Source: Bdellovibrionales bacterium (GTDB taxonomy: Bacteria; Bdellovibrionota; Bdellovibrionia; Bdellovibrionales; UBA1609). From it: 64,000 nt of DNA. The position numbers and the translations under genes were made by a program. The notes beneath the pieces were generated by a model that searched no databases, was not told the DNA's origin, and worked only from the letters and a program-made list of their open reading frames with translations. The stretch spans positions 24,293 through 88,292 of the forward strand of contig JBFWQY010000013.1 in the NCBI GenBank assembly GCA_050249195.1. Reading direction: 5' to 3'. Positions 40,461-58,367 of this stretch are shown one piece after another. Each line of letters starts with the position of its first letter. The stretch's first letter is position 1.

Positions 40461-40477
40461 GTGATACATTGTATCAC
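40461..40477 (-). promoter_or_regulatory. 17-bp near-palindrome, copy 1 (minus strand GTGATACAATGTATCAC; extended -10 TGATACAAT)
   Basis: Exact string read from the sequence and cross-checked against overlapping ORF translations. Lies 21 nt upstream of the 40439 start. Confidence 0.6.
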
Positions 40478-40664
40478 CTATAAACAGAAAAGTGAAAAGG
40501 GTAAAATTGAAAAAGCGAAATTTGAAATGTCGCGCCAGCTCCCTGGATGGAGAGCGCACTGCCTGCGAATTTGGCTTCAACTATATATTGGGGTGATAAA
40601 TCTTAGGTGGATTCTTAGTCTTAGTGTTGGGTTTAAGCCTAAAACAAAGACTTTGACAGTCTTA

Positions 40665-40681
40665 GTGTTACATTGTATCAC
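40665..40681. promoter_or_regulatory. 17-bp near-palindrome, copy 2 (minus strand GTGATACAATGTAACAC), overlapping a plus-strand TTGACA-N17-TATCAC promoter
   Basis: TTGACA at 40653-40658 and TATCAC at 40676-40681 (plus strand). The minus-strand TACAAT at 40677-40672 overlaps that -10. Lies 28 nt upstream of the plus-strand ATG at 40710. Confidence 0.55.
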
Positions 40682-40709
40682 TTTTATTAAACCTGCATGG
40701 AGTGAAACG

Positions 40710-41168
40710 ATGGCAAAGCCAAAAAACGAAGATTGGGAATTGGGAGAGCAGTGGGAAAGTTTTCGGGTAAAGGAGAGCGATGACCTGATGGCCCTTTTGA
40801 GTGATGTCGAGGGGAATCGTGGGGAGTTCATCCGTAACGCCCTTTTGAAATTCTATGAAGGGAAACTTCTCATCGATTGTCCAACTTGTGAGGGCGAAGG
40901 TCAGATTTATAGCGGCAGCGGTAAAGGACAGACCCCCTCCAAAAAGAAGGGTAAGGACGGCAAAAGTAAGGTGTTCACCTTTAGATCCGACAGCGGACTC
41001 CGGAAGGATCTCGCAAAGGCCAAAGACAAGGGTGAGACCATTAAGATGTCGCTTGCTGTAGCACTATCAAAGGAGCACGTCTTGGAATGTCCGACTTGCC
41101 GGGGCGTTGGCAAAATTATTGGTGGCCCAAAACTTAGAAAATCAGTGCTGGCTAAGTTTTCGACTTAG
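40710..41168 (+). CDS. RHH-like DNA-binding protein with two DnaJ-type CxxCxGxG zinc-finger motifs (candidate prophage regulator)
   Basis: 152 aa starting at MAKPKNEDWE. RGEFIRNALLKFYEG resembles a CopG/Arc RHH helix. CPTCEGEGQ and CPTCRGVGK are CxxCxGxG repeats. GGAG RBS. Confidence 0.55.
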   Translation: MAKPKNEDWELGEQWESFRVKESDDLMALLSDVEGNRGEFIRNALLKFYEGKLLIDCPTCEGEGQIYSGSGKGQTPSKKKGKDGKSKVFTFRSDSGLRKDLAKAKDKGETIKMSLAVALSKEHVLECPTCRGVGKIIGGPKLRKSVLAKFST

Positions 41169-41220
41169 AAAATTCTAAAAATCTTAAACTATCTGACGGA
41201 CTCTGCCCGCAAAGGACTAA

Positions 41221-42273
41221 ATGGACGAGATTATCATTATTGCGACCTGCCTATTTTTGAATGCTCTTTTTGCGGCCTATGAGATGGCGTTTGTTTCTAT
41301 CCCAAGATCAGAACTTCGAGCATTAGCAAAGGCCGGAAACAAGGATGCCAAAACACTTCTATCGCTGAGAGAAAGCCCAGAAAGAACCCTCTCCGTAATT
41401 CAAATCGGAATCACCCTAGTGGGCGCAGTTGCCGCTGCTATCGGCGGAGCTGGGGCCGGAGAAACCATTGAGCCTTATTTTAGACAAACTTATGGCATGC
41501 CGGAGAGAACTGCCGAAGCTCTGTCGGTTATACTTGTCGTTCTTCCGATCACATATATGAGCGTGGTCGTCGGAGAGCTTGTGCCCAAGACGCTTGCGCT
41601 CAGAAACCCTGCAAAGATAGTCCTGGCAGGCGCAAGGATCCTTTTTTTCGCTGATCGATTTCTCTCGCCAGTGATCACCACCCTAGAGTGGTCTACTAAA
41701 AAGATATTGAAAGTCTTTTTTCGCAAATCGAAGATGGCTCCACCTTCAGAAAATGCACCAATCGAAATTGATAGCTTCTCGCCCGTACATCAAAAATTCA
41801 TGCTTAACATGGCGGGTATTGAGAAGAAAAATACCAGGGACATTCTTCTGCCTTGGCCGCAGGTCATTTCAATTAAAAAATCAGCTACAATAGATGAAGT
41901 CACACAGGCTGTTGTAAGTTCGGGGCATACACGGCTGCCAGTAAAAGATGACGGTCAAGTAGCAGGGGTATTGCACACGAAAGAATTTATTGCGCTCAAA
42001 GAATCCGGTGAAGTTAATTGGCAAAGTATTATTCGTCCCGCTCTGACCGTACAGCCAACGGATTCGGCCTTGGGGGTTATGCGTTTACTCCAAGATAAAA
42101 GATACCACATGGCAATCGTCGCACTGCCATCGGGCGAGAGACTTGGAATTGTAACTTTGGAAGATATTCTCGAAGAAATTGTAGGTGATATTTTTGATGA
42201 AGACGACGACGACCGTGTGCGAAGAGTTTTTGCAGCAAAAATCAAGTCACGAGTCGTCCCGAAAGAGGAGTAA
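41221..42273 (+). CDS. CNNM/DUF21 transmembrane domain plus CBS-pair protein (TlyC/CorB-like), no CorC_HlyC tail
   Basis: 350 aa. The N-terminus IIIIATCLFLNALFAAYEMAFVSIPRSELRAL is typical of DUF21. CBS-like C-terminal half (GHTRLPV...MAIVALPSGERLGIVTLEDILEEIVGDIFDE). Confidence 0.8.
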   Translation: MDEIIIIATCLFLNALFAAYEMAFVSIPRSELRALAKAGNKDAKTLLSLRESPERTLSVIQIGITLVGAVAAAIGGAGAGETIEPYFRQTYGMPERTAEALSVILVVLPITYMSVVVGELVPKTLALRNPAKIVLAGARILFFADRFLSPVITTLEWSTKKILKVFFRKSKMAPPSENAPIEIDSFSPVHQKFMLNMAGIEKKNTRDILLPWPQVISIKKSATIDEVTQAVVSSGHTRLPVKDDGQVAGVLHTKEFIALKESGEVNWQSIIRPALTVQPTDSALGVMRLLQDKRYHMAIVALPSGERLGIVTLEDILEEIVGDIFDEDDDDRVRRVFAAKIKSRVVPKEE

Positions 42274-42274
42274 G

Positions 42275-42292
42275 GAGATTCAGTAGAATCTC
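42275..42292. terminator. Hairpin GAGATTC-AGTA-GAATCTC between convergent genes
   Basis: 7-bp stem with a 4-nt loop, 2 nt after the CNNM stop. No clear U-tract, so the call is weak. Confidence 0.3.
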
Positions 42293-42339
42293 GGATCAAA
42301 AGCAAGAGGGCAGAACTCGCTAGGTTTTAGTTTAAAACC

Positions 42340-42567
42340 TTAATAATTCTTACGAGTGTGACTTGGGCACGAGCATACAGGCTGTGGTGGCAGCGGGATC
42401 TCTTTCATCGGATGGTTTTTTCCGGCACGGCAGAAAGGACATCGATACATTGAACTTGTTCCTTCCGCTTCGTTTTTAACCCAAATTAACCCCTCATTTT
42501 CGCAGTATTTGCAGACAGTTTTTTGTTTATCTTTCATCTTCATCATTTCGATGTATGAGGCAAACAT
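42340..42567 (-). CDS. Zinc-ribbon protein (75 aa)
   Basis: CKYC...CPFC pairs. Confidence 0.45.
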   Translation of the reverse strand: MFASYIEMMKMKDKQKTVCKYCENEGLIWVKNEAEGTSSMYRCPFCRAGKNHPMKEIPLPPQPVCSCPSHTRKNY

Positions 42568-42950
42568 ACCTGTAAAAGTAGTGTCACCACCTTTTGCCGT
42601 CGTTTTTTAATAACAAATTAAGACGGGGCGCGTAGGCCAAGACACTGGCAGGTTGCCTAAAAACCTGCAGTCTAATCAAAATGGCAACTAAATGGCTTCA
42701 GATTAGATGCTGCGACAAAGGAAACTTGCAACGCAGACACCAGTCTTGAGTAGCTAAACAGGAATTTGTTGACTATTTATACTTAAATATTTTTTGTTTA
42801 GCCGATTAAATCCAGTTACTTCATTGAATTTATGGCTTGATGCGGGCGGTTAGGGCAAATCCAGTATCTGAATAGCTATTATATGTTTTGCTGGAAGGCA
42901 AGGCTTTAAAAGGGAAATTATTAACTTATTTAGCAAAGAAAGGAAATGGC

Positions 42951-43268
42951 ATGTCAATCCGCAAACACTTACCGCCTCGTTCTAAAGACGCGTACACGAG
43001 CCTTCAGGTCAAAATGGAGACCTCGGTCGTCGACGAGGTTAAATCTTTTATGAAAATCGATGGGATTTCATGGAACGACCTGCTCACGGCGTGTTTCACG
43101 AAATACCTGGAAGAGTCACGAGTGGTTCACGGCGAGAAAAAGAAAGAACAGGAAGAAGCCGCTAAGAAAAAGATCAACTCAACTCTTCTGGGCATCGTTA
43201 CTATAGTCAGTCTTTGTGAAAGTCCAATACTTCAGATCGTTTTCGATCTTAGCGACTATATTGCGTAA
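42951..43268 (+). CDS. Small protein, RHH-like N-terminus, hydrophobic C-terminus (105 aa)
   Basis: Start refined to MSIRKHLPP, which has an AAAGGAAA RBS. The VDEVKSFMKIDGISWNDLLTACFTKYLEE pattern is RHH-like. Weak call. Confidence 0.35.
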   Translation: MSIRKHLPPRSKDAYTSLQVKMETSVVDEVKSFMKIDGISWNDLLTACFTKYLEESRVVHGEKKKEQEEAAKKKINSTLLGIVTIVSLCESPILQIVFDLSDYIA

Positions 43269-43401
43269 AAAATTGAGACTTAAGAGGTTGGAACAACTTT
43301 ATACTTTTGTCAGAGCACGATGGGCTGAGAACTGTCCGTCACAGTATGCTCAAATTCTAATTAATTTCAATTTAAGTTTCGTTTACTGCTAGTTAAGATT
43401 T

Positions 43402-44082
43402 CTACAAACCATTTTCCGTAAACTCAAAATGCATCGGATCTTTTCTCTTAAAATTCCCGCCCCAATAAAAGCCTTCTGATTCAAAAATCTCGACGATCTC
43501 AGAATTCATGTCTCCATCCGCACCAAGAGGATTTGTTTTAGCGTTATGATCAACTGCAATTCCCCACGAGTGCATAGAGAGCTTTTTTGCTCCCCTCGTG
43601 TAGCGAAGATTATAACACCCATCAAATGAGTAGAGTTTGTCTGACAAGTCGGCATGAACAATGGCCTGATAGATATTCTGGAAAAACTGAATCAAAAGTT
43701 TATTGCACCAGAAACCATGCTTTTCGTCCTTCTGGTAGGTAAAGACGTGGTTAAGTTCCGGTGGGGTTTCGCAGAAGCCGCCATAAGCCTTCCAATATCC
43801 ACTTTCAAGAGGATCTCCGAACAGTTTGTAGAGTTCATCTCGTGACCGAGGAACAACCAGTTCAGGAATGTGCGGATTCGTATTGGGAAAAAGTTTTTCC
43901 CAAGTGACAGGACCGACTACTCCGTCGGCGTTGATCTTGTTTCTGATTTGAAATTCAACGACCGCCAATTTTGTATTGTTACCAAAAATGCCATCTACTT
44001 TACCGATGGGATGTCCCAACTGCTTTAATGTCTGTTGGATCTTTTGAACGTCTTCACTTCGTGAACCTATTTTGAAAATCAT
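43402..44082 (-). CDS. Endolysin: PG_binding_1 domain plus M15-family (VanY/D-Ala-D-Ala carboxypeptidase-like) peptidase
   Basis: GSRSEDVQKIQQTLKQLGHPIGKVDGIFGNNTKLAVVEFQ is the PG-binding repeat. SMHSWGIAVDHN and DPMHFE are the M15 metal ligands. Confidence 0.85.
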   Translation of the reverse strand: MIFKIGSRSEDVQKIQQTLKQLGHPIGKVDGIFGNNTKLAVVEFQIRNKINADGVVGPVTWEKLFPNTNPHIPELVVPRSRDELYKLFGDPLESGYWKAYGGFCETPPELNHVFTYQKDEKHGFWCNKLLIQFFQNIYQAIVHADLSDKLYSFDGCYNLRYTRGAKKLSMHSWGIAVDHNAKTNPLGADGDMNSEIVEIFESEGFYWGGNFKRKDPMHFEFTENGL

Positions 44083-45143
44083 AGATCTACTCCAGTGAAG
44101 GCCGACTCTGGCTCTTCTGAAAAGTGATTAAAAAGTGGTGCATCAGAAATGATTTTTGACCGTGCAAGCTCGACGTATTCAGGATTAAGTTCGACTCCAA
44201 CGAAACTACGATTGTGCTTTAGGGAAACGACTCCGGTGGTGCCGGATCCACAAAAGGGATCAAGTATGGTGCCGCCACTTGGACATCCCGCAAGGATGCA
44301 AGGTTCGATAAGCTTTTCAGGGAAGACAGCAAAATGAGCGTCGCTTGAACAAGCTGTGCTGACGGTCCATACGGATCTTTTATTTCGCCCATCTTCTAAG
44401 TAACTGCCATCATCTTCTCGTCCAGAATGAAGGCGTGTTCCATAGCCTGAATGCTTATTTCGACCACCAAAAACCGCTTTCATGGGGCCATTGGTTTTCC
44501 CCGGCACTCTTGAGCTGCCTTCTTGATGTTCAATATCTTGTGAAAGTCGTTGAACCGTAGACTCGGCGACGGGCTCTTTGATGGCGTCGTTGTCAAAATA
44601 ATATCTGGGCGATTTGCTTAGAAGAAAAAGATATTCGTGCGCCTTCGTGCAGCGATCCTGTACTGATTCGGGCATCGCATTGGACTTGGACCAGATAATG
44701 TCTTGCCTCAAATACCAACCTTGCGCTTGCAGGGCGAAGGCGACACGCCAGGGAATACCGACAAGGTCCTTGGGTTTTAGAATGGAATGAAACTTCAACG
44801 CTCCTTTGAATCCTATTCCAGAAACGGATCCAGCTCCGCGATTGGATTTCTGCTTTCGACTAACTTCTTTGGTATTTCCACGGTTATTGCCACCACCATA
44901 GTATGTGTCGCCAAGATTCAGCCAAAGAGTTCCTTTAGGCTTTAGGATCCTCCGAATTTCCTCAAAAATGACGGATAAATTTTGAACGTACTCTTCTGGA
45001 GTGGACTCTAAACCAAGCTGATCTTCCGCCTTGTAGTCGCGGAGGCCCCAATAGGGAGGAGAAGTTATACAACAATCAATGGATGAATTCGGAAGACTCT
45101 TAAGAATGCCTTGGCATTTGCCACTAAGAATCTTCCATCCCAT
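44079..45143 (-). CDS. DNA methyltransferase, N4/N6 family (beta class), no cognate nuclease seen
   Basis: Motif IV TSPPYWGLRDY is near the N-terminus and motif I ILDPFCGSGTTGVV is near the C-terminus. SPPY favours N4-cytosine but cannot exclude N6-adenine. Confidence 0.85.
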   Translation of the reverse strand: MGWKILSGKCQGILKSLPNSSIDCCITSPPYWGLRDYKAEDQLGLESTPEEYVQNLSVIFEEIRRILKPKGTLWLNLGDTYYGGGNNRGNTKEVSRKQKSNRGAGSVSGIGFKGALKFHSILKPKDLVGIPWRVAFALQAQGWYLRQDIIWSKSNAMPESVQDRCTKAHEYLFLLSKSPRYYFDNDAIKEPVAESTVQRLSQDIEHQEGSSRVPGKTNGPMKAVFGGRNKHSGYGTRLHSGREDDGSYLEDGRNKRSVWTVSTACSSDAHFAVFPEKLIEPCILAGCPSGGTILDPFCGSGTTGVVSLKHNRSFVGVELNPEYVELARSKIISDAPLFNHFSEEPESAFTGVDL

Positions 45144-45386
45144 TTACTTTTCAAATTCGGCAACCAATGCGGCCACAGCATTGAGTTTGGCTTTGATGTC
45201 ATTAAGAAGCGTGAGAGCGGTCGGCAAGTCAGTGGCGTCAGGTTCTGTTACCTCAAGCCCAGCTTTGATGGCATCAAGCTCTGTTCGAACGGCCTCGAAC
45301 AATTCCTTATCGGATGCTTGGTTACTGTTTGAATGACCTTCGGTTAAGCCCACGCCATCGCGTGAGCCAATTTTTGGTTTTCCCAT
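45144..45386 (-). CDS. Phage hypothetical protein (80 aa)
   Basis: ORF abutting the MTase start. Confidence 0.45.
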   Translation of the reverse strand: MGKPKIGSRDGVGLTEGHSNSNQASDKELFEAVRTELDAIKAGLEVTEPDATDLPTALTLLNDIKAKLNAVAALVAEFEK

Positions 45387-45398
45387 AGAGAAATCTCC

Positions 45399-45695
45399 TT
45401 ATTCGTTGAGGGACTCTTCGGCGTAGTAGTGAAGCTCCTTGCCGTTCACAGCCAACGCCGCCTTTACGGTAAAGCCTTCACTATCCAGTTCGACATACGG
45501 GTTCACCGTGCCGTCGCCATTTGCAGCTCTCACGAGTGCATCATTGGCTGGCATAGTGTCCAATTTGACTGCTGAAATTCGGTCGGTGACGTTGTGGATT
45601 TCAACCTTGCGAGGCTTGAAACCCAGAACAATTTTTTTATCGGCACCGCCACCGATAATTTTTCCAGATTTTGAAAAGGGTGCTTTGCTCGACAT
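45399..45695 (-). CDS. Phage hypothetical protein (98 aa)
   Basis: ORF with a GGAGA RBS. Confidence 0.5.
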   Translation of the reverse strand: MSSKAPFSKSGKIIGGGADKKIVLGFKPRKVEIHNVTDRISAVKLDTMPANDALVRAANGDGTVNPYVELDSEGFTVKAALAVNGKELHYYAEESLNE

Positions 45696-45714
45696 GGTTT
45701 TTCTCCTTGTGATC

Positions 45715-46146
45715 TTAAGACGGAGGGTGTGCTCCGTTTGATTTCTGTGCCATCAAAAATTCAATGATTTGTTTTTCGGTGTTTTCAAGTGCGCCTTGGA
45801 GTTTGATTGTTTCTTGGGAGAGATCGTTCAACTCCTTCATAATCCCGACGTAGATAGCCTTCATAGACCGCTGCTTTTCAATGTAGCTTTGTCTTGAAGA
45901 CTCGCGCATTTTCATGAGCTGCAGGAGAACCGGATCGGTGATCTTGTTCTCAGAAAAACTTTTGACTAGATGACTTAAGAGATTCTTTTCGTCATTGGTA
46001 AGATGGGATTTGTGGGGCCGCTCTTCTGAGAGGTTCTTGACCTCTTTTTCAACTTCGTCGACCTCGGATTCAGTTGGAACGCCATCCATCTTTGCTGCTT
46101 TCACTTCATCCATCGTGCGGTCGAATTTTTCCTTCGAAGTTTCCAA
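45715..46146 (-). CDS. Phage coiled-coil protein (143 aa), TTG start
   Basis: AAGGAG RBS 6 nt upstream of the TTG. Palindrome copy 3 lies 17 nt upstream. Confidence 0.5.
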   Translation of the reverse strand: METSKEKFDRTMDEVKAAKMDGVPTESEVDEVEKEVKNLSEERPHKSHLTNDEKNLLSHLVKSFSENKITDPVLLQLMKMRESSRQSYIEKQRSMKAIYVGIMKELNDLSQETIKLQGALENTEKQIIEFLMAQKSNGAHPPS

Positions 46147-46163
46147 TGCGATCTCCTTATTTA

Positions 46164-46180
46164 GTGATACATTGTATCAC
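46164..46180 (-). promoter_or_regulatory. 17-bp near-palindrome, copy 3, with an upstream TTGACT -35 (strong sigma70-like promoter)
   Basis: Minus strand reads TTGACT-N16-TACAAT with a TG extension: ...TTTGACTGATTTTCATTATGTGATACAATGTATCAC. Confidence 0.65.
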
Positions 46181-46190
46181 ATAATGAAAA

Positions 46191-46376
46191 TCAGTCAAAG
46201 CTCTTTTCGATCTGGGAAAGAGAGAGGTAGTGAGTCCCGTGCTGAGTGCTCACATAGACAAATTCTCCATCGATCTTTTTGATTACCCCAGGCTCCTGAT
46301 TTAAATTCACAACTTCTTTGTTCTTGTTGAGAATCGGAGCCGTAACCTTCACCTGATCGTTAACGCTTAGTTCCAT
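46191..46376 (-). CDS. Phage hypothetical protein (61 aa)
   Basis: ORF in the operon. Confidence 0.4.
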   Translation of the reverse strand: MELSVNDQVKVTAPILNKNKEVVNLNQEPGVIKKIDGEFVYVSTQHGTHYLSLSQIEKSFD

Positions 46377-46787
46377 CTAGAAATCCATATCCAGCACAAC
46401 AACCGTTGCACTTCCTACGAGGCCCCCAACCAGTCCGGCGATGACGTAGGACTTCGACTGCTCTCCAGCCACAGCTCCTAACGCCGAACCGATAAGAACT
46501 CCTGCGGGCACCTTCACCCACCATTCTTGCCAAATGGCTTTGTGCTGAACCTTTGAATCCAAGAGTGTCGTGTTGAGTTCCTTTTGGTTTTTGAGATCGA
46601 TGCGGTCGGCCTCGCACTGCTCAACGCCTTTTCTTAAATCAGACATCTTCTTGGCATTGAAGCACCAGGCTTCGACTTGAGATGCCTCTCCCGGCTTAAG
46701 CTGAAAATACGATTTAGGAGTCTCCGCCGCTTTTGTTGATAAACTCGTCAACAACATCAGCATCGGAAGTATTCTTATTTTTCTCAT
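46377..46787 (-). CDS. Secreted/membrane protein (136 aa): signal peptide plus C-terminal glycine-zipper TM
   Basis: MRKIRILPMLMLLTSLSTKAAE...VLIGSALGAVAGEQSKSYVIAGLVGGLVGSA. The start lies inside the 3' end of the upstream gene (74-nt overlap, different frame). Confidence 0.45.
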   Translation of the reverse strand: MRKIRILPMLMLLTSLSTKAAETPKSYFQLKPGEASQVEAWCFNAKKMSDLRKGVEQCEADRIDLKNQKELNTTLLDSKVQHKAIWQEWWVKVPAGVLIGSALGAVAGEQSKSYVIAGLVGGLVGSATVVVLDMDF

Positions 46788-46959
46788 ATAGCTCCTTCTT
46801 CTCAGCTTCAGTTTTCAGTTCTGTCTTGAGCGCCCGATTTTCATTCTCTTTCTTCTGAATGACGCCCTTCAAATGGTGATAAACAGCAAGGGCAATGGTT
46901 GGAATATTGTCCTTAAAGAACCTGTAAACGATGTCGAAAACCGATTTAAGCCAAGCCAT
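46714..46959 (-). CDS. Small membrane/coiled-coil protein (81 aa)
   Basis: Hydrophobic segment IPTIALAVYHHL followed by a charged helix. Confidence 0.4.
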   Translation of the reverse strand: MAWLKSVFDIVYRFFKDNIPTIALAVYHHLKGVIQKKENENRALKTELKTEAEKKELYEKNKNTSDADVVDEFINKSGGDS

Positions 46960-47214
46960 TTATTTCGGGGGTGTTTCGGTTGGTTTCGGAGACTCATTTG
47001 TTTTGTGTTGAGCGTTCCCTTGGAGCCAATCAATAATTTTGGCAACGAAATCAGAAGCTGATCCCAGTTTCTGAGCCAGCTCATCATCCCAAGTGGCTTT
47101 TGTTTTTGTTGAGACCCAACGGAAGAGCTGGGCGAGCCCACCAAGCGCCACGTTGACAGCCAGGAAGAGGGCAATCAAATCCCATTTTTCAAGAATCTGC
47201 TTGATAATTTCCAT
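46960..47214 (-). CDS. Small single-TM protein (84 aa), holin candidate
   Basis: TM segment WDLIALFLAVNVALGGLAQLF. First gene after palindrome copy 4. AAGGAG RBS. Confidence 0.4.
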   Translation of the reverse strand: MEIIKQILEKWDLIALFLAVNVALGGLAQLFRWVSTKTKATWDDELAQKLGSASDFVAKIIDWLQGNAQHKTNESPKPTETPPK

Positions 47215-47231
47215 CTCGATCTCCTTTTATC

Positions 47232-47248
47232 GTGTTACATTGTATCAC
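47232..47248 (-). promoter_or_regulatory. 17-bp near-palindrome, copy 4 (minus strand GTGATACAATGTAACAC)
   Basis: Lies 17 nt upstream of the 47214 start. String cross-checked via the overlapping ORF translation (RVTLYH). Confidence 0.6.
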
Positions 47249-47324
47249 GTTTCGGCATACAAAATAAAACATTTAATTTTGATCTGGGCTCCATTCAGTT
47301 GATTTGTGCGTCAAGCCATTGGTC

Positions 47325-47891
47325 TTAAGTGGACTCACTGCCGGAGCCTCCCTTTGATCCTTGTTTCTTTTCCGAAATAATGACCAAATTTTCGCTTATC
47401 CGTTTGATCTCAGATTTCATGTTCAGGATCTCTTCGCGGTGTTGATGCATGGCTTTCGCTCCGAGGCTTAGGCTATTGTGATGGGCCTCAACGGTTTTCT
47501 GCACTTCAGAGACATGAGTGCAGAGATTCTTTACTTGGGAGGCAGTTTCATCGAACTGGGTTTTTAACTGTTCGGCTTTGCTGTTGACCTGCTCAAATGC
47601 GCCCTCGATTTGAATGGCCTTTTTATGGATTTGAAAAAGCTCGTGGTTCACTTTTCCTTCAAACCCAACCATTGCCTTTTTTATTTCGAGAGAATCCTTC
47701 TTAATTTCTGATGCTGTAGTTTCCATTTTCTCAGCCGATGTCTTTACGTCCTTCGCATGTTCATCGAGCTTTTCATTTACAGAATCCTTGAATTGGTCGT
47801 GACGATTTACAAAGCGAACTAAGAACCACAGCGCGAGAGCCGTGGCAGCAGGTGCAATCCAATAGGAAAAAGAGACGAAAAACTCTTTCAT
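47325..47891 (-). CDS. Membrane-anchored coiled-coil protein (188 aa)
   Basis: N-terminal TM (YWIAPAATALALWFLV) followed by a long heptad-like region. Confidence 0.5.
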   Translation of the reverse strand: MKEFFVSFSYWIAPAATALALWFLVRFVNRHDQFKDSVNEKLDEHAKDVKTSAEKMETTASEIKKDSLEIKKAMVGFEGKVNHELFQIHKKAIQIEGAFEQVNSKAEQLKTQFDETASQVKNLCTHVSEVQKTVEAHHNSLSLGAKAMHQHREEILNMKSEIKRISENLVIISEKKQGSKGGSGSEST

Positions 47892-48115: not shown

Positions 48116-48125
48116 ATTCCCTCCC

Positions 48126-49600: not shown

Positions 49601-49602
49601 TG

Positions 49603-50505: not shown

Positions 50506-50517
50506 AAATATCTTTCC

Positions 50518-50949
50518 TTAAGTGTTTCCAAAGTCTTCAACCAATTGATCGATGTCTGCTTCCGATAGTGGCGCTCCAATAACGATCTTTCTTTGTTCTG
50601 TAGTTAGCTGATCCCAAACTGAGTTAGCTGCCGCCGATTTTGCATTCTCGATTGCAAGAGGTCTGGCTGTTGCGAGATCAATTTTTTCTTGCTGATCTTC
50701 TTGGTCTATTGAACTCCAGATTGATTCAAACAAAGTATCCTCTTCGGAAGACAGTTCGTCCCTGAAACAAAACCTGATCTCTCCTTCATTGTCCGATTTG
50801 ATCCAGCACCAATAGAGTGGAAGTGACTCAGCGCCTGAACCATGATTGAAGGCAACCAGCCTACTGAAATTTGTTGCAAGCTCCTTGTCTAAATCAGTAA
50901 GCGATAGGGGAAACGGGATTATCTTCTGTTTGATAAATGGCATATCCAT
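50518..50949 (-). CDS. Acidic protein (143 aa), tail-fibre assembly chaperone candidate
   Basis: Start refined to MDMPFIKQK at 50949, which has a GGGAGGAG RBS. The chaperone call is based on position only. Confidence 0.4.
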   Translation of the reverse strand: MDMPFIKQKIIPFPLSLTDLDKELATNFSRLVAFNHGSGAESLPLYWCWIKSDNEGEIRFCFRDELSSEEDTLFESIWSSIDQEDQQEKIDLATARPLAIENAKSAAANSVWDQLTTEQRKIVIGAPLSEADIDQLVEDFGNT

Positions 50950-50950
50950 T

Positions 50951-51466
50951 TTAGAACTCCTCCCAAACAATGAATGTGCAAGCCTCAAGACTTATCCCGC
51001 CTCCGGCTCCAGGCCCTCTGAACATGAGAGTGAAAGTGTGCGAGCCAGCTGGAACTGTTTTCTTAATGAACAAGCCGGGAGTACCAAGACGCATCTGAAT
51101 AGTTCCAGATCCGATCTGGGTTAGGTTGTATTCTGATAGAGAAGGAACGTCCGTTTCATATCTGAGACCCAGCCCCCATGTCATTGCAGAAACCGAAGAC
51201 ATATTTGCTTGAACGTAAGCAAAGCTATTCGGTGATCCTAAGAATCCTGCATTGATAATCCCACCACGAGTAACCAAATCTATCGCTGAGTTTGGGACAT
51301 CAATGAAGGAAGTCGCATTTGTAGATTGACCGCCGACAAAACGACTTCCTACCTGGCCGATTTGCAATCCCGTTTGTCCAGCGGCAGGTCGAGACTTCTG
51401 ACGGATGATGCCGTTTACTATTTCAAGAGTGAAATTGTCTGGGCGTGTGCCTACTGTCGTGAACAT
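50951..51466 (-). CDS. Tail-fibre-associated protein (171 aa)
   Basis: Start refined to MFTTVGTRP at 51466, which has a GGAGGAAAG RBS. Follows receptor-binding paralog A. Confidence 0.45.
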   Translation of the reverse strand: MFTTVGTRPDNFTLEIVNGIIRQKSRPAAGQTGLQIGQVGSRFVGGQSTNATSFIDVPNSAIDLVTRGGIINAGFLGSPNSFAYVQANMSSVSAMTWGLGLRYETDVPSLSEYNLTQIGSGTIQMRLGTPGLFIKKTVPAGSHTFTLMFRGPGAGGGISLEACTFIVWEEF

Positions 51467-51467
51467 A

Positions 51468-52487
51468 TTAGCTTTCCTCCGCGACAATGGCAGCAGTATC
51501 AATTCCCTGATCAATTGGGCTTAAGCCGCTCGCATGCCATCCGGTTAAGAAGTTTTGGTTGCCGACAATATAGACCTGCCCGCCATACCGGAGGTTTTCG
51601 AGTCGTGATCGATTTCCACCTAATGTGATCGCCGTATTAAATTTAGAATCAAATCCAAGGCCGACCCAATTGAATCTCTTTGTGAAGACATAGCCTCCGA
51701 CAGTCGAAGTATTGAGATTGTAGTTTGTGAATTCTAAATTCCCTCCAGAGGTCCAAGAGAATCCATTGTTGACGCTGTTTACAGTTCCAATGCCAGGGAT
51801 AAGAGTTGCTGGTGTTCTTCTTCCGACGATGACATTGCCGCCTCCAAAATTTAAAACGAAGTCAAAAGCAAATGCATAAGTTCGATTTGGATATAAAATC
51901 GTGGGTGGAAAAGTGAAGGTGTGTCTTATCCCTGTTGCCACAGGAAGCTGTGCTGGCAAAAATGAGTTTGAATCAGCAAGTTTTACTGTAGGAAGGTTGG
52001 CTGATGTTTCCCAGAGAGTTAAAAGCGTTTGAGCGGTGGTGCTGACAATTCCATTATTTCGAATCTCAACGTCTATCGAGTTTAAAATGCGAATTTGGTT
52101 TGCATGAGAGGGAAAGAGCGTCCCGAAGAGATTACTATTTCCGTCAAGACCGGCGTCTGAGTTCGAAACCTCAGTTTTATTGAGAAATACTTCGGAACCA
52201 CCAGCGGGTCCTGTAAAAGTATTTCGCAAAACCAGAATAGACGATCCTTCAGGCAAGGTATCGTGTGCGACTTGTGGATTACTAAAATCCGCAGCACCAG
52301 AGGCCACATCAGCAACAGAGCCCAAGATCCCATCAAACTTAATGGACTTTCCTGCGGCTGCAACAAATTGGAGTAGTTCATCACTTAGATGACGCTCTTG
52401 AATGCTTTTATCAGGAATGACGTTGTCGACAGAAACTGTCTTTTGCCTTACAGAGCGTCCCTTTCCTAGATCATAGATTTCTCTCAT
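51468..52487 (-). CDS. Tail fibre / receptor-binding protein, paralog A (339 aa)
   Basis: SIKFDGILGSVADVASGAADFSNPQVAHDTLPEGSSILVLRNTFTG and the C-terminal WHASGLSPIDQGIDTAAIVAEES align by eye with paralog B. Confidence 0.6.
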   Translation of the reverse strand: MREIYDLGKGRSVRQKTVSVDNVIPDKSIQERHLSDELLQFVAAAGKSIKFDGILGSVADVASGAADFSNPQVAHDTLPEGSSILVLRNTFTGPAGGSEVFLNKTEVSNSDAGLDGNSNLFGTLFPSHANQIRILNSIDVEIRNNGIVSTTAQTLLTLWETSANLPTVKLADSNSFLPAQLPVATGIRHTFTFPPTILYPNRTYAFAFDFVLNFGGGNVIVGRRTPATLIPGIGTVNSVNNGFSWTSGGNLEFTNYNLNTSTVGGYVFTKRFNWVGLGFDSKFNTAITLGGNRSRLENLRYGGQVYIVGNQNFLTGWHASGLSPIDQGIDTAAIVAEES

Positions 52488-52497
52488 CCATTACCTC

Positions 52498-55400
52498 TTA
52501 GTCGTCCGTGAACGAATACTGATTATCCGTTCCATTGTTCGTGACCGTTGACGCAGCAGTGATCCAATTGTCAGTGGCCCGATTTTTATTCCCGTTGAAA
52601 ATTACGTTGCCCGTCACTTTTAGATTCTTGAAGAGGTTCGCATTGCCATTGATCGTGAGGGCTCCATTTAGGACTGAGCCATTTCCTTTGCCTTCAAGAA
52701 AAAGCTGACTCTTCGTCCAAACCACTGCTCCGACAACTGTCGTTGCGAGAAGAAAAATCTTTCCAGGAGTTGATAGGAAGTCATGAGCTTGCTGGATCGA
52801 ACTAAAATCAGCTTTGCCGTTAGCAACGTCGAGTGCTGATCCGACAATCACGTCAGCAAATGCAGCAATTCGTAAGGCGTTTTGATCTTTCGTGTCTAGA
52901 GTTCCCTGGCGTCTCAAAGCGTGAATACTGACCACAGAGGTTGTGAGGTCTTCAGAAAATCGAATTCTGTTCGTTCCCACTTCTCTGTAAAAGAGCGTTT
53001 TGGCAGGATCAAGCCCAGCGTAATATCGCGGTATCTCAAGACCTTCGACAATTACGGTAAGGTCTCCGTTAGGCTTCCCAAGATTCAAGTTGGGAACGAA
53101 TGAGAACCCTAATTCAACTTCGCTGACGTTTAAACTAAGTGGGACGTCAAAGACGGTCGAAATTCCTAAGATACCATTGGCATTTGAACTGTCGCTAATG
53201 ATGAACCCTGAGTCGATGTATCCGCCATTATTGAACCCTTCGAGTTCATAGATACTTGCTTTGTAATTCAAAAGATTTGCGGCAGTAGTGACAACGTCGC
53301 TCGTTGGACTACAGAAGAATACAAAAAAGCATCGCTCGTTGTTTGTAGAAGTGGGAAAGACGACTTTCGGCAGAGTGCCCGAAGCTACAGGTCGCTCCAC
53401 AGCTTGTGAAAATGTTGAAGAGAGGGGTTGATTCAGATCCGTCACAAGTCCTGAACTTGACCCGGCGACCGCAATCCGCGATGCCTGATCCAGATCAGGG
53501 AACATATCGTTTGCGGCGAGGCTATCCTCATAGCGCACAACCGCTTCCAGCAGATCTCTTGGACCAAAGATTTTTGAGAATGGTAGATTATCGAGGAGGC
53601 CCGTCGGATCGCCTAGATTGACAAGATCCTTAGTCCACACGGCTTGAGAGAACATGATCGGAGCAACCGTGAAGACTTGCGAGAAGGGCGTATCAATAAC
53701 GTAATCGGTAGGGCCTTGAATAATTGTGATCCGTCGAAATTCTGGTGCGGTAACTTGCTCAAACAGTTCATAGAAGAGAACGCTTGTGCTATCAGCTAAT
53801 GACCACACTGAACCGTCGTAAATGTATCTAGCCTGGCCAGAGCCTGAACTGTCTCGAAGAATTCGGATCACATTTCCTGAAACAAAACCGGAAATGTAAG
53901 TTGTGTCAGCTTCGAACACGAGAAATTTAAGACCGGAAAGCGACTGGTTTTGAACATTCAGACTAAAAGCCGTGACTCCAAGCCCAAATGAACTTGCAGG
54001 AATTGTCATGGACGCAATGACGTCGAGAGGGTTGGTCGAAGGAAGACCGCTTATTGAATGCACCAATTTTACGACAACATTGCCGACAGGGTTTCCGTCG
54101 CGGAATCCTTTGATGACAATCTTGTTGATCTTTTGCCCTGTAAAATTGAAGTCGCCAGCGATCCCTCTTTGTGTCGTATTGTTAAGATCGTCTCCGCCGT
54201 TTTGTACAGTTTGATTGACGGTCCTAACTACGCCTGGCCAATAAACGATGTCTCCAACCTGAAGAGTGAATGAAGGAACACCGCTGGGAGTGATCTTGTG
54301 ATCGCCAGGCACTCCGTCTGTGAGAGTAGATATACTTGGTGTAACCACATCTTGACCCGGCACTCTTGGAACCTCGGCGGGAAAATTTGCTGTATGTTTT
54401 ACAGTTCTAAAGAGCTGAAGGTCATCGTAAGATCCAGACATCGACTCGGTAGCATCGTGCTTAGACCCAAGTGACATTGTGCTGTTGAAGAATAGGAAGT
54501 TTTGATCGCTCGTAAGATTAACGGCGGCTGATCCGATTAAAAGTCCATTGACGAAAAAGCGTTGGACATTTGTGACGTAGTCATAATCGAATTCGATTTC
54601 ATAGGTCTGGCCATTCACTATTGTCGGGAAGTTACCGAAGTTCGTGTTGAAAATATTGTTGCTGGAGTCAACCGAGGTTACTTGAACAATACCAGTCGTC
54701 GCCAATAGTCTCAGCGTAATTTCAGATTGGTTTCCTGTATCCTTGGCTCCAAACCATGATTTGTTAGTTACAGGAAAACCGCTGAAATCAGGAATCCACT
54801 TGAATCGAATGGTTCCGATATCATCATTGAGCCCTTGACCGAAGTTGGCGTACTGAGCGCGGCCACCGCCTCCAGGAACATTAAGGCGGTTTGATGAGAT
54901 CGTCGCACCGCCAGTTAAGACTCTCGCGGGAGCGCCAGCAGCAAAGTCAGCATTCGTAGAGGCGTTAACAAAAGTGTCTCTGAAAGTTTCATCAACTGTA
55001 GAAAGAACCCGTGGAATTTCACCTGTAAAGTTAGCGGTGTGCTGTATGGTCTTAAAGATTTGCAAGTCATCAAACTGGAAGTTGCCAGAAAAGTTCCCGT
55101 TCCCATCAGAGCCAAGAACAAAGTTCGCACTTACCGTATAGCTGGCACTTCGAGAGATAGTGCCCGTGTGAGTGGATCCGACCTGCACACCATTGACAAA
55201 AAGTCTTTGAGCGCCTGAGACAAAGTCGTAACTGAACTCCACCTCGCATTCAACTCCAGGGGTAACGCTTGGAATACCGAAGTTCGAATTGATATTTGTA
55301 AAACCAACGCTGTCGAATGCTTGATAAGTGAGTGCCCCGGAAGGTTGGCGTTGTAATGTCAGAGCATTTTCTGCAGCAGGTTCTCTCGCCTCGAACAACA

Positions 55401-58326
55401 CCTGAAATCCGCCAGGAGCATTTGGAATCCATTTAAATCTGATAGTGCCAACGCGAGGGTTGATATTTCCATCAGGGCCTGCAGTGAACGCTTGAATCCG
55501 AGTACCGCCCGAAGAGCCTGATGTGGTGGTGAGTTTTCCGGGATTCGCAGTGATATTGCCGCCGCCTAAGAAGAAAAATCGCTCATCGCCTTTTGAAATC
55601 AAAGCCTCAAGAAGAACGCCGACACCCGTAAAGTCACAGCGAAGGAGTTCATTGTTGTTGAATGGATCAGGGACCGTTCTGACTAGAGTATTGAGAGAAA
55701 CGACTAATTGGGGCTGATTGATGCCGCCTTCTGTAGTTCCAAAGGTAATATCAAAACCAGCGGTTTCACTTCCGACAATGTTCAAAGATGAAGAATCAAT
55801 TGATGATAATGCCTCAAGAAACCCAATTAACCCTGCTGCATTGGTGCCCGCAGGAATATTGGTTGTTTCATTCCCGTCATGACTTAGACGGTAAAATCCC
55901 CCGGTCGGAACCGCACTGAATATCAGGCGCTGAACTTCATTGACTTGGTTGATGATTGTAACGGAGGCTGTCTTGGATTTGTCACACTGAAGGCGATAGG
56001 CTCCATCCGTGTCGTGGTTTGCATTCGTGAGAGGATCATTGACCTTCGATGTAGGATCAGCGGGCGGTGTTGTGAGGTCATCGGTGACGGCTGCCTCAAA
56101 ACCGTCTTCAGGCTCAATCGGTGCTCCGCCTCCGCCACTCACAACTGGAGTTGCTGATCCTCCGCCTTTAGCTCCGAACCTTACGATGTTCGATTCAGAA
56201 ATAGCGAGAATGGTTCCGGCTCCGCCTGCGCCATTATCTTGAACAACCAAAATACCAATCGGTAAATTGTCCCCAAGATCTGGATCAGTGGCCGCTCCCT
56301 CAGTCGCACCGTCATTTGTCGGTAAGATAACGACCAATTCATTGTTATCATCAAGTGCAAGACCGTATTTGAAAAAGCGATTGGGAGCGGATGGTGTATA
56401 GGGGGTGAAGTTTGCTCCCCCGCCAGTGACGACACCCATTGCAAAGTTCGCTGTACCTCCAGCATAAACGACAACTTCCCCATTATTTGTCAGTGCAAAT
56501 TTGCTGGAGTCAGCGGCTAGAATTTGTGCCGGATCAATGATGACAGCAAAATTGTTGGGATTGTTAGGTCGTACCTTTAAGAGCTTTCTCGATAGAGTTT
56601 CATCGTAAGCTTCGTTGAGACTGGAATTCACGACGATGGGTGTGGTGTCCGCCTTCTTATAAACTGAGCCAAGAGCTGTCAGCTGATCACGGGCGGCCCT
56701 GTGATCGCCGAACTCGTTCACTTCTGTAAGAATCTGTCCGCCGTGTCTTGTGATCTTGAATGACTCGCCAGGATCGTTGTTGTCGGTGTCAAGATCGATT
56801 GAAAGTAGGCTTGCGGGCAAAGAGATATTTGTGCCGAAGAGATTTAAATTTCCATTCTCAAGAAGCTCAAAGAGGGTTTGTAGTCCACCATTCTTGCTGA
56901 CCCTGAAGGTTTCTCCCGTAACAAGATTGTCGGTATCGAGATCAATATTAAAGATAGGATTTTTAGCGAGGATATTTCCAAACAACCAGAGGTTTCCCGA
57001 TTCCAGGATTCGGAAGATTTCATTTAAGGGCGCTACAGAGTTGTTATAGAACTGATAGCCATGACCAGTTCCGTTGTTGTCGCTATCGATCAAGAAGATC
57101 ATGTCGGTCAGCGATTGAAGTTTCGCATTGAACGTGACCACGTCGACGTTGATGTCGTCACCAAGGGTGGAGCTTCCCTTAATATTTTGATCGCCTTCTA
57201 CAACAATCGTAGATTGGAAAATTGAACTGACGGCTGCAATGCTTTGAAAATATGCGTTTCCGTGAGCATCTATAAATGCAATAGGATTTCCCATTGCATT
57301 TCGAAGTCTCCACTTGATTCCTTGGATGCCAGATCCACCAGAAGACTGAAACAGCGTATGGGAAACAGGCACATCCGGCGAATCTTCATCACTCGCATTG
57401 ACCTGGGTATCAAGCTGAACTCCAGGCACGATTTGCTTTGTGGCAATTCTCTCTGGCGTTATCAAAGTGTGAGTGCCGTCAACGGAGCTGTGCTCCTCGA
57501 AAAAGAGAGAAACGAGACTTGGGAAACTCACTGCATGATTGTTGACATCGGTTTCATCAAAAGAACTGGGGGTGTTGCCAGAACCTGCACCAGTGACAAT
57601 GCCAAGAAATAGAATGTTGTTGTCGAGGCGCAGATCAGTGTTTCGCCTGATTGTCGGTCCTTTCAGGAACACCTGATAATCCGAAGGATCCGTTGAGATA
57701 TTGCCGAGGGTTTGACCGAGAGCCGTGAGTGTCTCGATTTTGTTATTTACTCCATCCCAAATCACAGTCAGCTCTTCAAAAGATTGAGCTTGATTTTGAG
57801 CGCGCTTAAGCCAGACAACGGCTTTTCTACCTGCGTGACTAACGCCAGGTTCACAAACGCTATCAACGATAAGAGTCAGAGTTTCATCACCATCATCAAC
57901 AACAGAGTTTGGATCGGCAACCTCTCCAATCGATTCTTCTTTGAATGTGTACTTTATCTCGCCCGTGCGGACGTTGATTTCTGTTTCGCGGGGAAGATAG
58001 TTGAAGCGAAGTCCGACGTAGTATGGAATCGAGAGTGCATTCTCAAAGGCGATAAGATTCGCATCGATGGGATCAAGAATAAGGTAATTTCCTTGAGCAC
58101 CATCGGTCCCCCGCAGTGGAGACGAAATATCAAACGTGTCGGGCGTGGAAGCCGAAAGGATATTTGAAACAAGAATGTTCGGCTCAAAAACACCATTAAC
58201 CGGGAAGAGCTTTGTAAAGACGTCATGGATCTTCTTTTCGAGAAAATCAAAAAAGTTTTCGGTGATCTGCTGCTGGGTCAGGAACTTTTTAAGGTATATG
58301 TCGACTTTTCGATTACCTGTGGCCAT
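52498..58326 (-). CDS. Giant tail fibre/adhesin (1942 aa) with internal repeats, two LamG/ConA-like domains and a C-terminal receptor-binding-type module
   Basis: Single long ORF downstream of palindrome copy 5. Internal repeats are described in the findings. Confidence 0.8.
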   Translation of the reverse strand: MATGNRKVDIYLKKFLTQQQITENFFDFLEKKIHDVFTKLFPVNGVFEPNILVSNILSASTPDTFDISSPLRGTDGAQGNYLILDPIDANLIAFENALSIPYYVGLRFNYLPRETEINVRTGEIKYTFKEESIGEVADPNSVVDDGDETLTLIVDSVCEPGVSHAGRKAVVWLKRAQNQAQSFEELTVIWDGVNNKIETLTALGQTLGNISTDPSDYQVFLKGPTIRRNTDLRLDNNILFLGIVTGAGSGNTPSSFDETDVNNHAVSFPSLVSLFFEEHSSVDGTHTLITPERIATKQIVPGVQLDTQVNASDEDSPDVPVSHTLFQSSGGSGIQGIKWRLRNAMGNPIAFIDAHGNAYFQSIAAVSSIFQSTIVVEGDQNIKGSSTLGDDINVDVVTFNAKLQSLTDMIFLIDSDNNGTGHGYQFYNNSVAPLNEIFRILESGNLWLFGNILAKNPIFNIDLDTDNLVTGETFRVSKNGGLQTLFELLENGNLNLFGTNISLPASLLSIDLDTDNNDPGESFKITRHGGQILTEVNEFGDHRAARDQLTALGSVYKKADTTPIVVNSSLNEAYDETLSRKLLKVRPNNPNNFAVIIDPAQILAADSSKFALTNNGEVVVYAGGTANFAMGVVTGGGANFTPYTPSAPNRFFKYGLALDDNNELVVILPTNDGATEGAATDPDLGDNLPIGILVVQDNGAGGAGTILAISESNIVRFGAKGGGSATPVVSGGGGAPIEPEDGFEAAVTDDLTTPPADPTSKVNDPLTNANHDTDGAYRLQCDKSKTASVTIINQVNEVQRLIFSAVPTGGFYRLSHDGNETTNIPAGTNAAGLIGFLEALSSIDSSSLNIVGSETAGFDITFGTTEGGINQPQLVVSLNTLVRTVPDPFNNNELLRCDFTGVGVLLEALISKGDERFFFLGGGNITANPGKLTTTSGSSGGTRIQAFTAGPDGNINPRVGTIRFKWIPNAPGGFQVLFEAREPAAENALTLQRQPSGALTYQAFDSVGFTNINSNFGIPSVTPGVECEVEFSYDFVSGAQRLFVNGVQVGSTHTGTISRSASYTVSANFVLGSDGNGNFSGNFQFDDLQIFKTIQHTANFTGEIPRVLSTVDETFRDTFVNASTNADFAAGAPARVLTGGATISSNRLNVPGGGGRAQYANFGQGLNDDIGTIRFKWIPDFSGFPVTNKSWFGAKDTGNQSEITLRLLATTGIVQVTSVDSSNNIFNTNFGNFPTIVNGQTYEIEFDYDYVTNVQRFFVNGLLIGSAAVNLTSDQNFLFFNSTMSLGSKHDATESMSGSYDDLQLFRTVKHTANFPAEVPRVPGQDVVTPSISTLTDGVPGDHKITPSGVPSFTLQVGDIVYWPGVVRTVNQTVQNGGDDLNNTTQRGIAGDFNFTGQKINKIVIKGFRDGNPVGNVVVKLVHSISGLPSTNPLDVIASMTIPASSFGLGVTAFSLNVQNQSLSGLKFLVFEADTTYISGFVSGNVIRILRDSSGSGQARYIYDGSVWSLADSTSVLFYELFEQVTAPEFRRITIIQGPTDYVIDTPFSQVFTVAPIMFSQAVWTKDLVNLGDPTGLLDNLPFSKIFGPRDLLEAVVRYEDSLAANDMFPDLDQASRIAVAGSSSGLVTDLNQPLSSTFSQAVERPVASGTLPKVVFPTSTNNERCFFVFFCSPTSDVVTTAANLLNYKASIYELEGFNNGGYIDSGFIISDSSNANGILGISTVFDVPLSLNVSEVELGFSFVPNLNLGKPNGDLTVIVEGLEIPRYYAGLDPAKTLFYREVGTNRIRFSEDLTTSVVSIHALRRQGTLDTKDQNALRIAAFADVIVGSALDVANGKADFSSIQQAHDFLSTPGKIFLLATTVVGAVVWTKSQLFLEGKGNGSVLNGALTINGNANLFKNLKVTGNVIFNGNKNRATDNWITAASTVTNNGTDNQYSFTDD
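54361..55449 (-). repeat. Tandem duplication of a roughly 150-aa LamG/ConA-like domain inside the giant fibre (copies at 55006-55449 and 54361-54816)
   Basis: Both copies start GTIRFKWIP and end HTANF(T/P)(G/A)E(I/V)PRV. Shared internal motifs: Y/CE(I/V)EF(D/S)YD(Y/F)V...QR(F/L)FVNG. Confidence 0.7.
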
Positions 58327-58350
58327 TCTTTTGCTTTCCTAACAGTTTAT

Positions 58351-58367
58351 GTGATACATTGTATCAC
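58351..58367 (-). promoter_or_regulatory. 17-bp near-palindrome, copy 5 (minus strand GTGATACAATGTATCAC)
   Basis: Lies 24 nt upstream of the giant-fibre ATG at 58326, in the only 68-bp gap within the baseplate-fibre block. Confidence 0.6.

Follow-up and report, generated by a model that had tools for sequence, protein, structure and literature searches.

A conserved 17-bp palindrome as a putative promoter-operator in a lineage of uncultured Bdellovibrionales prophages

Why would a prophage carry one and the same 17-bp palindrome at its switch region, in front of its lysis genes and upstream of a giant-fibre operon? This question is raised by a 64,000-nucleotide stretch of DNA from a Bdellovibrionales bacterium (GenBank assembly GCA_050249195.1, contig JBFWQY010000013.1, positions 24,293 to 88,292), hereafter called the window. 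Here, the 17-mer GTGATACAATGTAWCAC occurs in five exact copies on the minus strand (copies 1 to 5 at 40461-40477, 40665-40681, 46164-46180, 47232-47248 and 58351-58367). An initial annotation of the window had proposed that a dimeric phage regulator binds on top of a promoter at each of these sites. We compared the window with related phages, and the best-supported reading is of the same kind: each 17-mer would be an extended -10 promoter overlaid by a dyad operator, to which one dimeric master repressor binds. We hold this reading to be somewhat better than an even bet; promoter activity, start site, repression and binder are predictions made from the sequence.

Five copies of the palindrome precede prophage genes

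A pattern search recovered the five copies at exactly the positions that had been reported, whereas dinucleotide-preserving shuffles of the window gave 0.00 matches to GTGATACAATGTAWCAC. When up to three mismatches were allowed, no site beyond the five was found in the 64-kb window. The host part of the window (1-28094) is thus free of the motif even at this tolerance, as the initial annotation had concluded by eye. The window copies are perfect palindromes except for the centre base and position 14.

Copies 1, 3, 4 and 5 lie 21, 17, 17 and 24 nt upstream of a start codon on the minus strand, with ribosome-binding sites of the AGGA/GGAG type in between, which agrees with the earlier description. 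Copy 2 was correctly singled out as well: no minus-strand open reading frame (ORF) follows it, and the plus-strand ATG at 40710 lies 28 nt past it. According to the ORF list, the minus-strand gene chain from 43.4 to 62.7 kb has three gaps of more than 40 nt, and each of them holds a motif copy.

The motif belongs to one lineage of temperate phages

When 185,579 species were scanned for exact matches, with one genome for each, 47 loci were returned. Nearly all of them were singletons in unrelated taxa, found at approximately the chance rate, and most singletons lay inside longer palindromes or at chance level. The only genome with multiple copies was a Pseudobdellovibrionaceae metagenome-assembled genome (MAG), in which a 71-kb contig with a related phage carried eight copies and a small contig carried one more, all on one strand; the latter belongs to the integrase-operon class of sites introduced below. 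This result bears out the view that the motif is linked to the phage rather than being a scattered host word. In addition, the 67.5-kb IMG/VR contig IMGVR_UViG_3300009777_000113 contained nine exact copies and one variant with T at the centre.

Further relatives were obtained from a metagenome scan, from look-ups of homologues of a 152-amino-acid (aa) protein encoded next to copy 2, and from a scan for the T-variant. These were L075/L138/L140 (FRDC01003218.1), L148, L172/L175/L088, L178, L086, L141, L184, L185, L215, L216, L218 and the distant contig IMGVR_UViG_3300048836_000758. The relatives are 63-93% nucleotide-identical to the window or to one another. Altogether, at least 12 uncultured, mutually related phages of the Bdellovibrionales/Oligoflexia carry several copies of the motif, with about 11 sites each. 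Because multi-copy occurrence is confined to related phages, the motif is specific to one uncultured temperate-phage lineage of this group and is not a host repeat.

The palindrome is conserved beyond the needs of a -10 element

When the relatives were combined, 11 orthologous site classes per phage were distinguished. Classes c1 to c5 correspond to copies 1 to 5 and precede the early operon (c1), the divergent gene for the 152-aa protein (c2), the genes from a 143-aa protein to the endolysin (c3), genes for small membrane proteins (c4) and the gene for a 1942-aa protein (c5). The other classes precede the tail operon, the major-capsid gene, the gene for an XkdF-type protease, the small terminase gene (followed by large terminase, portal and MuF), a ParB_N-N6/N4 methylase gene and an integrase operon with a serine recombinase. 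Nearly every operon of the prophage and its relatives therefore appears, as far as operons can be predicted, to begin with the motif. The sites had previously been described as spanning the switch region and the lysis/methyltransferase and giant-fibre operons. This holds for the five copies, but the window contains only 5 of about 11 sites, since the prophage runs off its end.

To measure conservation, motif-anchored alignments were made and the minimum changes per column were added up across ten site classes. Two changes sufficed for the 17 columns of the motif, compared with 74 and 94 for the 17 columns on either side, and substitutions and indels start right at the motif borders. Under the flank rate, such conservation has a Poisson P of ~1e-33, which points to very strong selection on the motif. 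Only positions 4, 9 and 14 vary, exclusively between A and T, and they form a mirror-symmetric set. The consensus is therefore GTGWTACAWTGTAWCAC, a perfect 8-1-8 palindrome. The earlier statement that conservation extends beyond what a -10 element needs, together with the dyad symmetry, is thus borne out by the comparison.

At positions 4 and 14, the combinations A/T, A/A, T/T and T/A were all seen, varying by site and by phage; for example, position 14 of copy 4 is A in the window and T in L098. Phages differ in their half-site types (Fisher P=8e-5), but a clean phage-wise covariation was rejected, as L215, L216 and L218 are mixed. We read positions 4 and 14 as a tolerated W (A or T) and not as a specificity switch.

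A predicted extended -10 promoter in each copy

All five window copies contain TGATACAAT, that is, TG, one base and a -10 hexamer, and the relatives have TGWTACAAT or TACATT. Which strand reads TACAAT is set by the centre base. TACAAT was found on the gene strand in 12/12 relatives at c1, 7/7 at c3, 6/6 at c4 and 5/5 at c5, the last including the distant contig IMGVR_UViG_3300048836_000758. The same was true for the protease (4/4), small terminase (7/7), ParB-methylase (4/4) and integrase-operon (4/4) sites, so that 8 of the 11 classes are without exception; the tail site follows in 2/3 relatives and the capsid site in 0/3. At c2, the centre base flips among relatives (6/12). A base that is mutable at c2 and yet held elsewhere is more than a purely symmetric element requires. 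The extended -10 element, first seen in a single genome, thereby gains comparative support, with TG-n-TACAAT heading operons in at least 12 relatives.

The copies had been called identically oriented. It is true that all of them read GTGATACAATGTAWCAC on the minus strand, but orientation hangs on one or two bases per site, and copy 2 probably serves the 152-aa gene on the plus strand. Its plus strand reads TGTTACATT in the window and TGTTACAAT in 6 of 12 relatives.

Across relatives, the start codon mostly follows at 13-29 nt, and the interval contains a Shine-Dalgarno sequence. The shortest distance, 3 nt, is found at the ParB_N-N6/N4 methylase gene, where in four relatives (L048:10484-10500, L025:6024-6040, L148:12030 and L081:1950) the motif is followed by gtt and ATG. 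The N-terminus of this protein, M(R/G)LQLIKRNIETK, is conserved, and together with the 3-nt gap this suggests a near-leaderless mRNA that starts inside or just after the motif.

In a sigma-70 scan for -35 elements, only copy 3 (TTGACT, 16-nt spacing, as already recognized in the initial annotation) and copy 1 (TTCACT, 17-nt spacer) passed. The upstream flanks are A+T-rich and share no -35 at a fixed spacing. The predicted early promoter must be readable by the host polymerase alone, and the late sites have the same sequence.

The four minus-strand copies would drive the following operons. Copy 1 is the predicted promoter-operator of the early replication/recombination operon (29245-40439, minus strand). 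Copy 3 would serve an operon running from 46146 to 43402, which encodes proteins of 143, 98 and 80 aa, an N6/N4 methyltransferase and the endolysin. An operon for small, perhaps holin-like proteins (47214 to 46191) would be under the control of copy 4, and copy 5 would control the operon headed by the gene for the 1942-aa protein (58326 to 47325).

A putative operator for one dimeric repressor

What polymerase requires of an extended -10 promoter is the TG (-15/-14), the A at -11 and the T at -7. Several other positions of the motif are dispensable for polymerase and yet invariant, namely G1, the C of TACAAT (where the consensus has T) and the GTAWCAC, which spans discriminator and start site. 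Together they mirror the left arm exactly. Contacts with RNA polymerase do not account for the mirror-symmetric degeneracy at positions 4, 9 and 14, whereas a dimer reading two GTGWTAC half-sites about 10 bp apart would account for both the symmetric conservation and the degeneracy. The binder would most simply be a repressor, since a protein covering -16 to +1 would occlude polymerase. Moreover, about 11 consensus-like lytic promoters in an integrated prophage would need one.

We propose the following mechanism. The host sigma-70 RNA polymerase would read TG-n-TACAAT as an extended -10 element, with no fixed -35. Transcription would start at about motif position 16-17, leaving a leader that just fits a ribosome-binding site. 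The 8-1-8 palindrome GTGWTACA-W-TGTAWCAC would at the same time be the operator of one dimeric repressor, placed on -10 to +1. In the lysogen, this repressor would shut all of the ~11 operons (early, lysis, fibre, tail, head, packaging, ParB-methylase and integrase), and its loss would release them together. Copy 2 would be the same module turned to the divergent 152-aa gene, which would thereby be autoregulated. The product of this gene, a zinc-finger protein, would be the most likely binder of the motif.

Candidate regulators in the switch region

The 152-aa protein (40710-41168, plus strand) has two CxxCxGxG (CPTCxGxG) zinc knuckles and two tandem beta-alpha-alpha units, and is in our view the best candidate for the motif binder, or else a co-factor. 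Only 13 homologues were found in 5.8 billion proteins, all of them at least 71% identical (71-93%), and in every case in which the DNA upstream was retrieved, the gene adjoined copy 2. The protein had been labelled as ribbon-helix-helix (RHH) in the initial annotation. This label was not confirmed: there was no Pfam match at E<=10, no match in hhalign comparisons with CopG/Mnt and none in a phmmer search of the PDB.

A cassette on another contig (L103:3299-4268, Ga0163151_10000306) contains the 152-aa gene, c2, the CTAAGAC block described below, c1 and the start of the first early gene, with both 17-mers intact. It is surrounded by genes for a relaxase, a tyrosine integrase and toxin-antitoxin proteins, and no phage similarity was detectable beyond the cassette. 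An immunity module that had been retained would be expected to have this appearance, and the cassette may represent domesticated superinfection immunity.

A 105-aa protein (42951-43268, plus strand) is a second candidate regulator. Its N-terminal 60 aa are conserved and RHH-like and its C-terminus is hydrophobic; its own promoter region lacks the motif. The AlphaFold model reached a predicted local distance difference test score (pLDDT) of 64.7, and Foldseek gave no significant match, with the RHH folds of CopG, TacA and ORF56 appearing only at E>4. No homologue of this protein was detected in L103.

Neither a sigma factor nor an RNA polymerase nor an S24 repressor was found among the phage genes examined. 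When E. coli LexA and lambda CI were used as phmmer queries against the 8,061 ORFs of all fetched loci, no S24 (LexA/CI-type) protein and no lexA were found.

Copy 2 is abutted by a conserved block of CTAAGAC/AGTCTTAG boxes (40600-40664). The 55-nt box block is better conserved than other intergenic DNA, and the 12-mer AGTCTTAGTGTT occurs in it twice, 41 bp apart. Boxes of this type also cluster at 28366-29342 (e.g. 29160-29209), at the ORF-poor far end of the early operon, where AAACTAAGAC occurs three times. They may be a second operator set or a set of iterons. A small RNA starting from copy 2 was also considered and rejected, as the 189-nt spacer between copies 2 and 1 folds no better than shuffled sequences (z = -0.76). 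The conserved hairpin beside copy 2 showed no RNA covariation and is broken in two of nine relatives.

Small CxxC zinc-finger or zinc-ribbon proteins were seen more than once in these phages (L048:8833-9162, window 40710-41168 and window 42340-42567), and two of them have DnaJ-type CxxCxGxG pairs.

Points against the promoter-operator and alternative explanations

Several observations weigh against a promoter overlaid by an operator. The -35 element appears weak or absent at most sites, and activity without an activator is an assumption. At the capsid-gene site (L187:4940-5100 compared with L035:4309), unlike in any other class, the gene strand reads TACATT (3/3), and the distant relative lacks this site, which implies that single sites can be gained or lost. 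One promoter type for early and late genes does not explain temporal control; obvious candidates for setting early and late timing are the -35/UP quality and the half-site type, which differ between sites. The 152-aa protein has no DNA-binding domain detectable with Pfam, hhalign or PDB phmmer, and its AlphaFold model (pLDDT 42.7) is unreliable and shows only the doubled beta-alpha-alpha pattern. Finally, the core of the motif, WTAC-N3-GTAW, fits the LexA box of the host clade.

This last point leads to an alternative that we regard as unlikely, in which the promoters are as proposed above but host LexA binds the palindrome, either by itself or together with a phage co-repressor, as happens in Bacillus phage GIL01. 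The whole prophage would then be wired directly to the SOS response and have no classical repressor of its own. For B. bacteriovorus, TTAC-N3-GTAA is reported as the sequence bound by LexA (PMC8565304, PMC3323433, both citing Campoy 2005). An exact match to this box is present in L184, in L218 (c3) and at all four sites of IMGVR_UViG_3300048836_000758. The host is itself a member of the Bdellovibrionales, and an S24-type repressor was found in no fetched phage locus. However, the full LexA core is present at none of the five window sites, three of which match at 6/8 positions and two at 7/8. Furthermore, the outer GTG/CAC triplets are no less invariant than the core, and the conserved site is longer than the reported 11-bp box. 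The resemblance is also cheap by chance, because a -10 element starting with TA leaves only a C and a W to explain. The T-variant resembles further palindromic operators, too, namely the Zur box and parS. The two other perfect TTAC-N3-GTAA matches in the window both lie inside coding sequence.

A more specific pair of possibilities is that LexA acts at every operon together with the 152-aa protein as a co-repressor like gp7 of GIL01, or that the 152-aa protein represents a new zinc-dependent class of master repressors. We consider this pair improbable. If the first were true, the SOS regulon would directly include, all at once, an entire ~65-kb myovirus-like prophage that has no classical repressor and comes from a lineage of predatory bacteria.

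It is very unlikely that the sites are only operators or roadblocks resembling the stoperators of mycobacteriophage L5, with promoters located elsewhere and TACAAT incidental. Many sites do lie in short intergenic gaps of a long co-directional gene array without upstream terminators, which is reminiscent of L5, where more than 20 sites are found in promoters and short intergenic spaces (PMC9283540). However, the upstream flanks contain no conserved -10/-35 elements besides the motif, and a symmetric roadblock has no need for an A on the gene strand at the centre base. In addition, the first early gene and the divergent gene each need a promoter at the site that precedes them, and at one gene only 3 nt separate the motif from the ATG.

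The opposite possibility, to which we give just as little weight, is that the motif is only a strong and perhaps bidirectional promoter cassette, kept by contacts with polymerase or a phage-modified polymerase and without any repressor. The extended -10 element is a good one, symmetric -10 elements reportedly give divergent transcription, and the proposed binder is so far at the candidate stage. However, polymerase has no need for G1, C7 and G11-C17, and the variation at positions 4 and 14 is mirror-symmetric. Antisense transcription would enter the upstream gene at most sites, and ~11 strong constitutive lytic promoters in an integrated prophage would have to be silenced.

A role as a nucleic-acid hairpin, either an RNA 5' stem-loop or processing site or an N4-like DNA cruciform or hairpin promoter, is extremely unlikely. 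Perfect copies fold at -7.3 kcal/mol and the T-variant at -10.8 kcal/mol, and other sequences have the identical 17-mer as part of longer palindromes that resemble terminators. However, about 5 of the 11 classes (copies 2 and 4 and the ParB-methylase, integrase-operon and capsid sites) are of the mixed A4/A14 type. These have an A-A mismatch in mid-stem, fold at only -3.8 to -4.7 kcal/mol and remain mixed across relatives. A start at position 16-17 would leave the hairpin outside the RNA, the phage sites have no T-run after the motif, and no gene for a virion RNA polymerase was found among the phage genes examined.

A recombination or packaging site was rejected, because recombination between direct repeats would delete essential genes and because the sites track start codons.

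Comparison with known systems

The conserved inverted repeats (CIRs) of Streptomyces phage phiC31 are 17-bp sequences that are located at many intergenic loci, are associated with promoters and are bound by the c repressor. The phage lineage described here resembles this system, as one temperate phage has many intergenic, promoter-linked 17-bp inverted repeats and, as proposed, a single repressor. The CIRs, however, are found mainly at early promoters of a distinct type that is not sigma-70-like. Here, the palindrome itself contains the predicted extended -10 element, and it precedes operons of every kind, whether early, late, lysis or integrase.

In lambda, 434 and P22, the CI-Cro and Arc/Mnt operators are likewise dyads of 14-21 bp over -10/+1 of lytic promoters, with a divergent, autoregulated regulator gene. 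They are present at only two or three early promoters, and late genes are controlled through antitermination or activators. In the phages studied here, the same predicted operator is on all operons, and no HTH-S24 repressor (HTH, helix-turn-helix) was found.

GIL01 (controlled by LexA and gp7) and CTXphi are known LexA-controlled phages, and GIL01 has only a few LexA sites rather than one for each operon. The likeness to them and to the B. bacteriovorus LexA box (PMC8565304, PMC3323433) consists of the core TAC-N3-GTA, exact in T-variant sites, the same host clade and the overlap with promoters. The window sites differ in having mostly ATAC...GTAT and in the invariant GTG/CAC arms, which extend the site to 17 bp.

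The mycobacteriophage L5/Bxb1 network shares features on the genome scale: 10-30 short sites genome-wide in short gaps, an orientation tied to transcription and one silencing repressor (PMC9283540). In the present phages there are ~11 intergenic sites each, and the centre base follows the gene strand. The L5 sites, however, are asymmetric 13-bp sequences, are bound by a two-domain monomer and mostly act on elongation (PMC9283540), whereas the sites described here are 17-bp palindromes that imply a dimer, all of them coinciding with a -10 element. What would be distinct about the lineage described here is a symmetric operator that is fused to an extended -10 element and is present at nearly every operon, including late, lysis and integrase operons.

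To our knowledge, almost no phage biology exists for the predatory bacteria of the Bdellovibrionales. For their uncultured temperate phages, the motif provides a model with a single switch, together with a complete map of transcription units that can be tested. If it is a promoter-operator, it would be a portable 17-bp cassette for regulated expression and thus a genetic tool for Bdellovibrio. If the binder turned out to be LexA or a novel zinc-finger protein, this would widen the known modes of prophage silencing to one operator on all operons, without a cascade.

Prophage setting and neighbouring genes

The homology to related phages ends on the left at 28094, and the phage continues past 64000. 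The region from 1 to 28094 is host DNA with RND and MFS efflux genes, a cysteine desulfurase gene and helicase/ATPase genes. One of the host proteins is 100% identical to a protein from a 'Bdellovibrionales bacterium' MAG. Beside the prophage, a host region (15197-19742) encodes a HATPase_c_3 protein, a ResIII/DEAD helicase and neighbouring proteins that together look like a defence island.

Prophage genes are almost all on the minus strand, with a small plus-strand module between the early and the lysis/methylase operons. The early operon encodes an AAA_24 ATPase, a YqaJ exonuclease, an HTH_36 initiator, a RepB-type primase, a DnaB-like helicase, a 5'-3' exonuclease and a PDDEXK nuclease. In the lysis/methylase operon, the methylase is of the N6_N4 type and the endolysin combines PG_binding_1 and Peptidase_M15_4 domains. 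Further genes encode small membrane proteins, the 1942-aa protein and its followers, and baseplate proteins with a P2 gpI-like domain. No tRNA was found in the window, and an Rfam scan of the whole window matched no family. In a blastn search for cultured relatives among 50,697 phage records, only the methyltransferase gene gave a match.

Two genes are absent from the closest IMG/VR relative, namely one for a CNNM/CBS (CorC-like) transporter (41163-42308, plus strand) and the N6/N4 DNA methyltransferase gene (44083-45140). Both resemble moron-type insertions, the former in the switch region and the latter in the lysis region. At the left end of the prophage, about 1 kb (28094-29140) is ORF-poor, with a raised G+C content (0.50), ~87% conservation in the IMG/VR relative and no Rfam match; it may be a candidate for an att site, an ori or a non-coding RNA.

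A 9.2-kb MAG contig (L219, GCA_043955535.1 JBINOL010000036.1) is 99.9% identical to positions 59984-64000 of the window and breaks off at 59984. This identity indicates that the same prophage is present in a second, more fragmented assembly. In the 5 kb past the window end, as read in this contig, there are no motif copies, as the relatives predict.

Other occurrences of the 17-mer

The same 17-mer was seen in sequences unrelated to this phage lineage. In the AT-rich viral contigs L051 (positions 7228 and 7541), L049, L055 and L061, it has the form ttaattgaacaatacaaatataataaaaaaa-motif-ttttt, which looks like a terminator or a promoter cassette. Two of the AT-rich viral contigs with the 17-mer are 169-314 kb long, and L051 has just 8 kb. 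A regulator shared with L051 and L049/L055/L061 was considered and rejected, as the 17-mer there is flanked by A-runs and T-runs or lies in duplicated cassettes, and the phages are unrelated. The 17-mer also occurs two to three times in the GC-rich, phage-unrelated metagenome contigs L071, L097 (Ga0272448), L100 (12797 and 12923) and L139 (150 and 279; Ga0315274). In one set of these contigs it lies inside GAGG...CCTC hairpins followed by a T-run. In the other set it forms pairs about 127 bp apart, and the pair in L100 is located near glnA and an AbrB-like gene.

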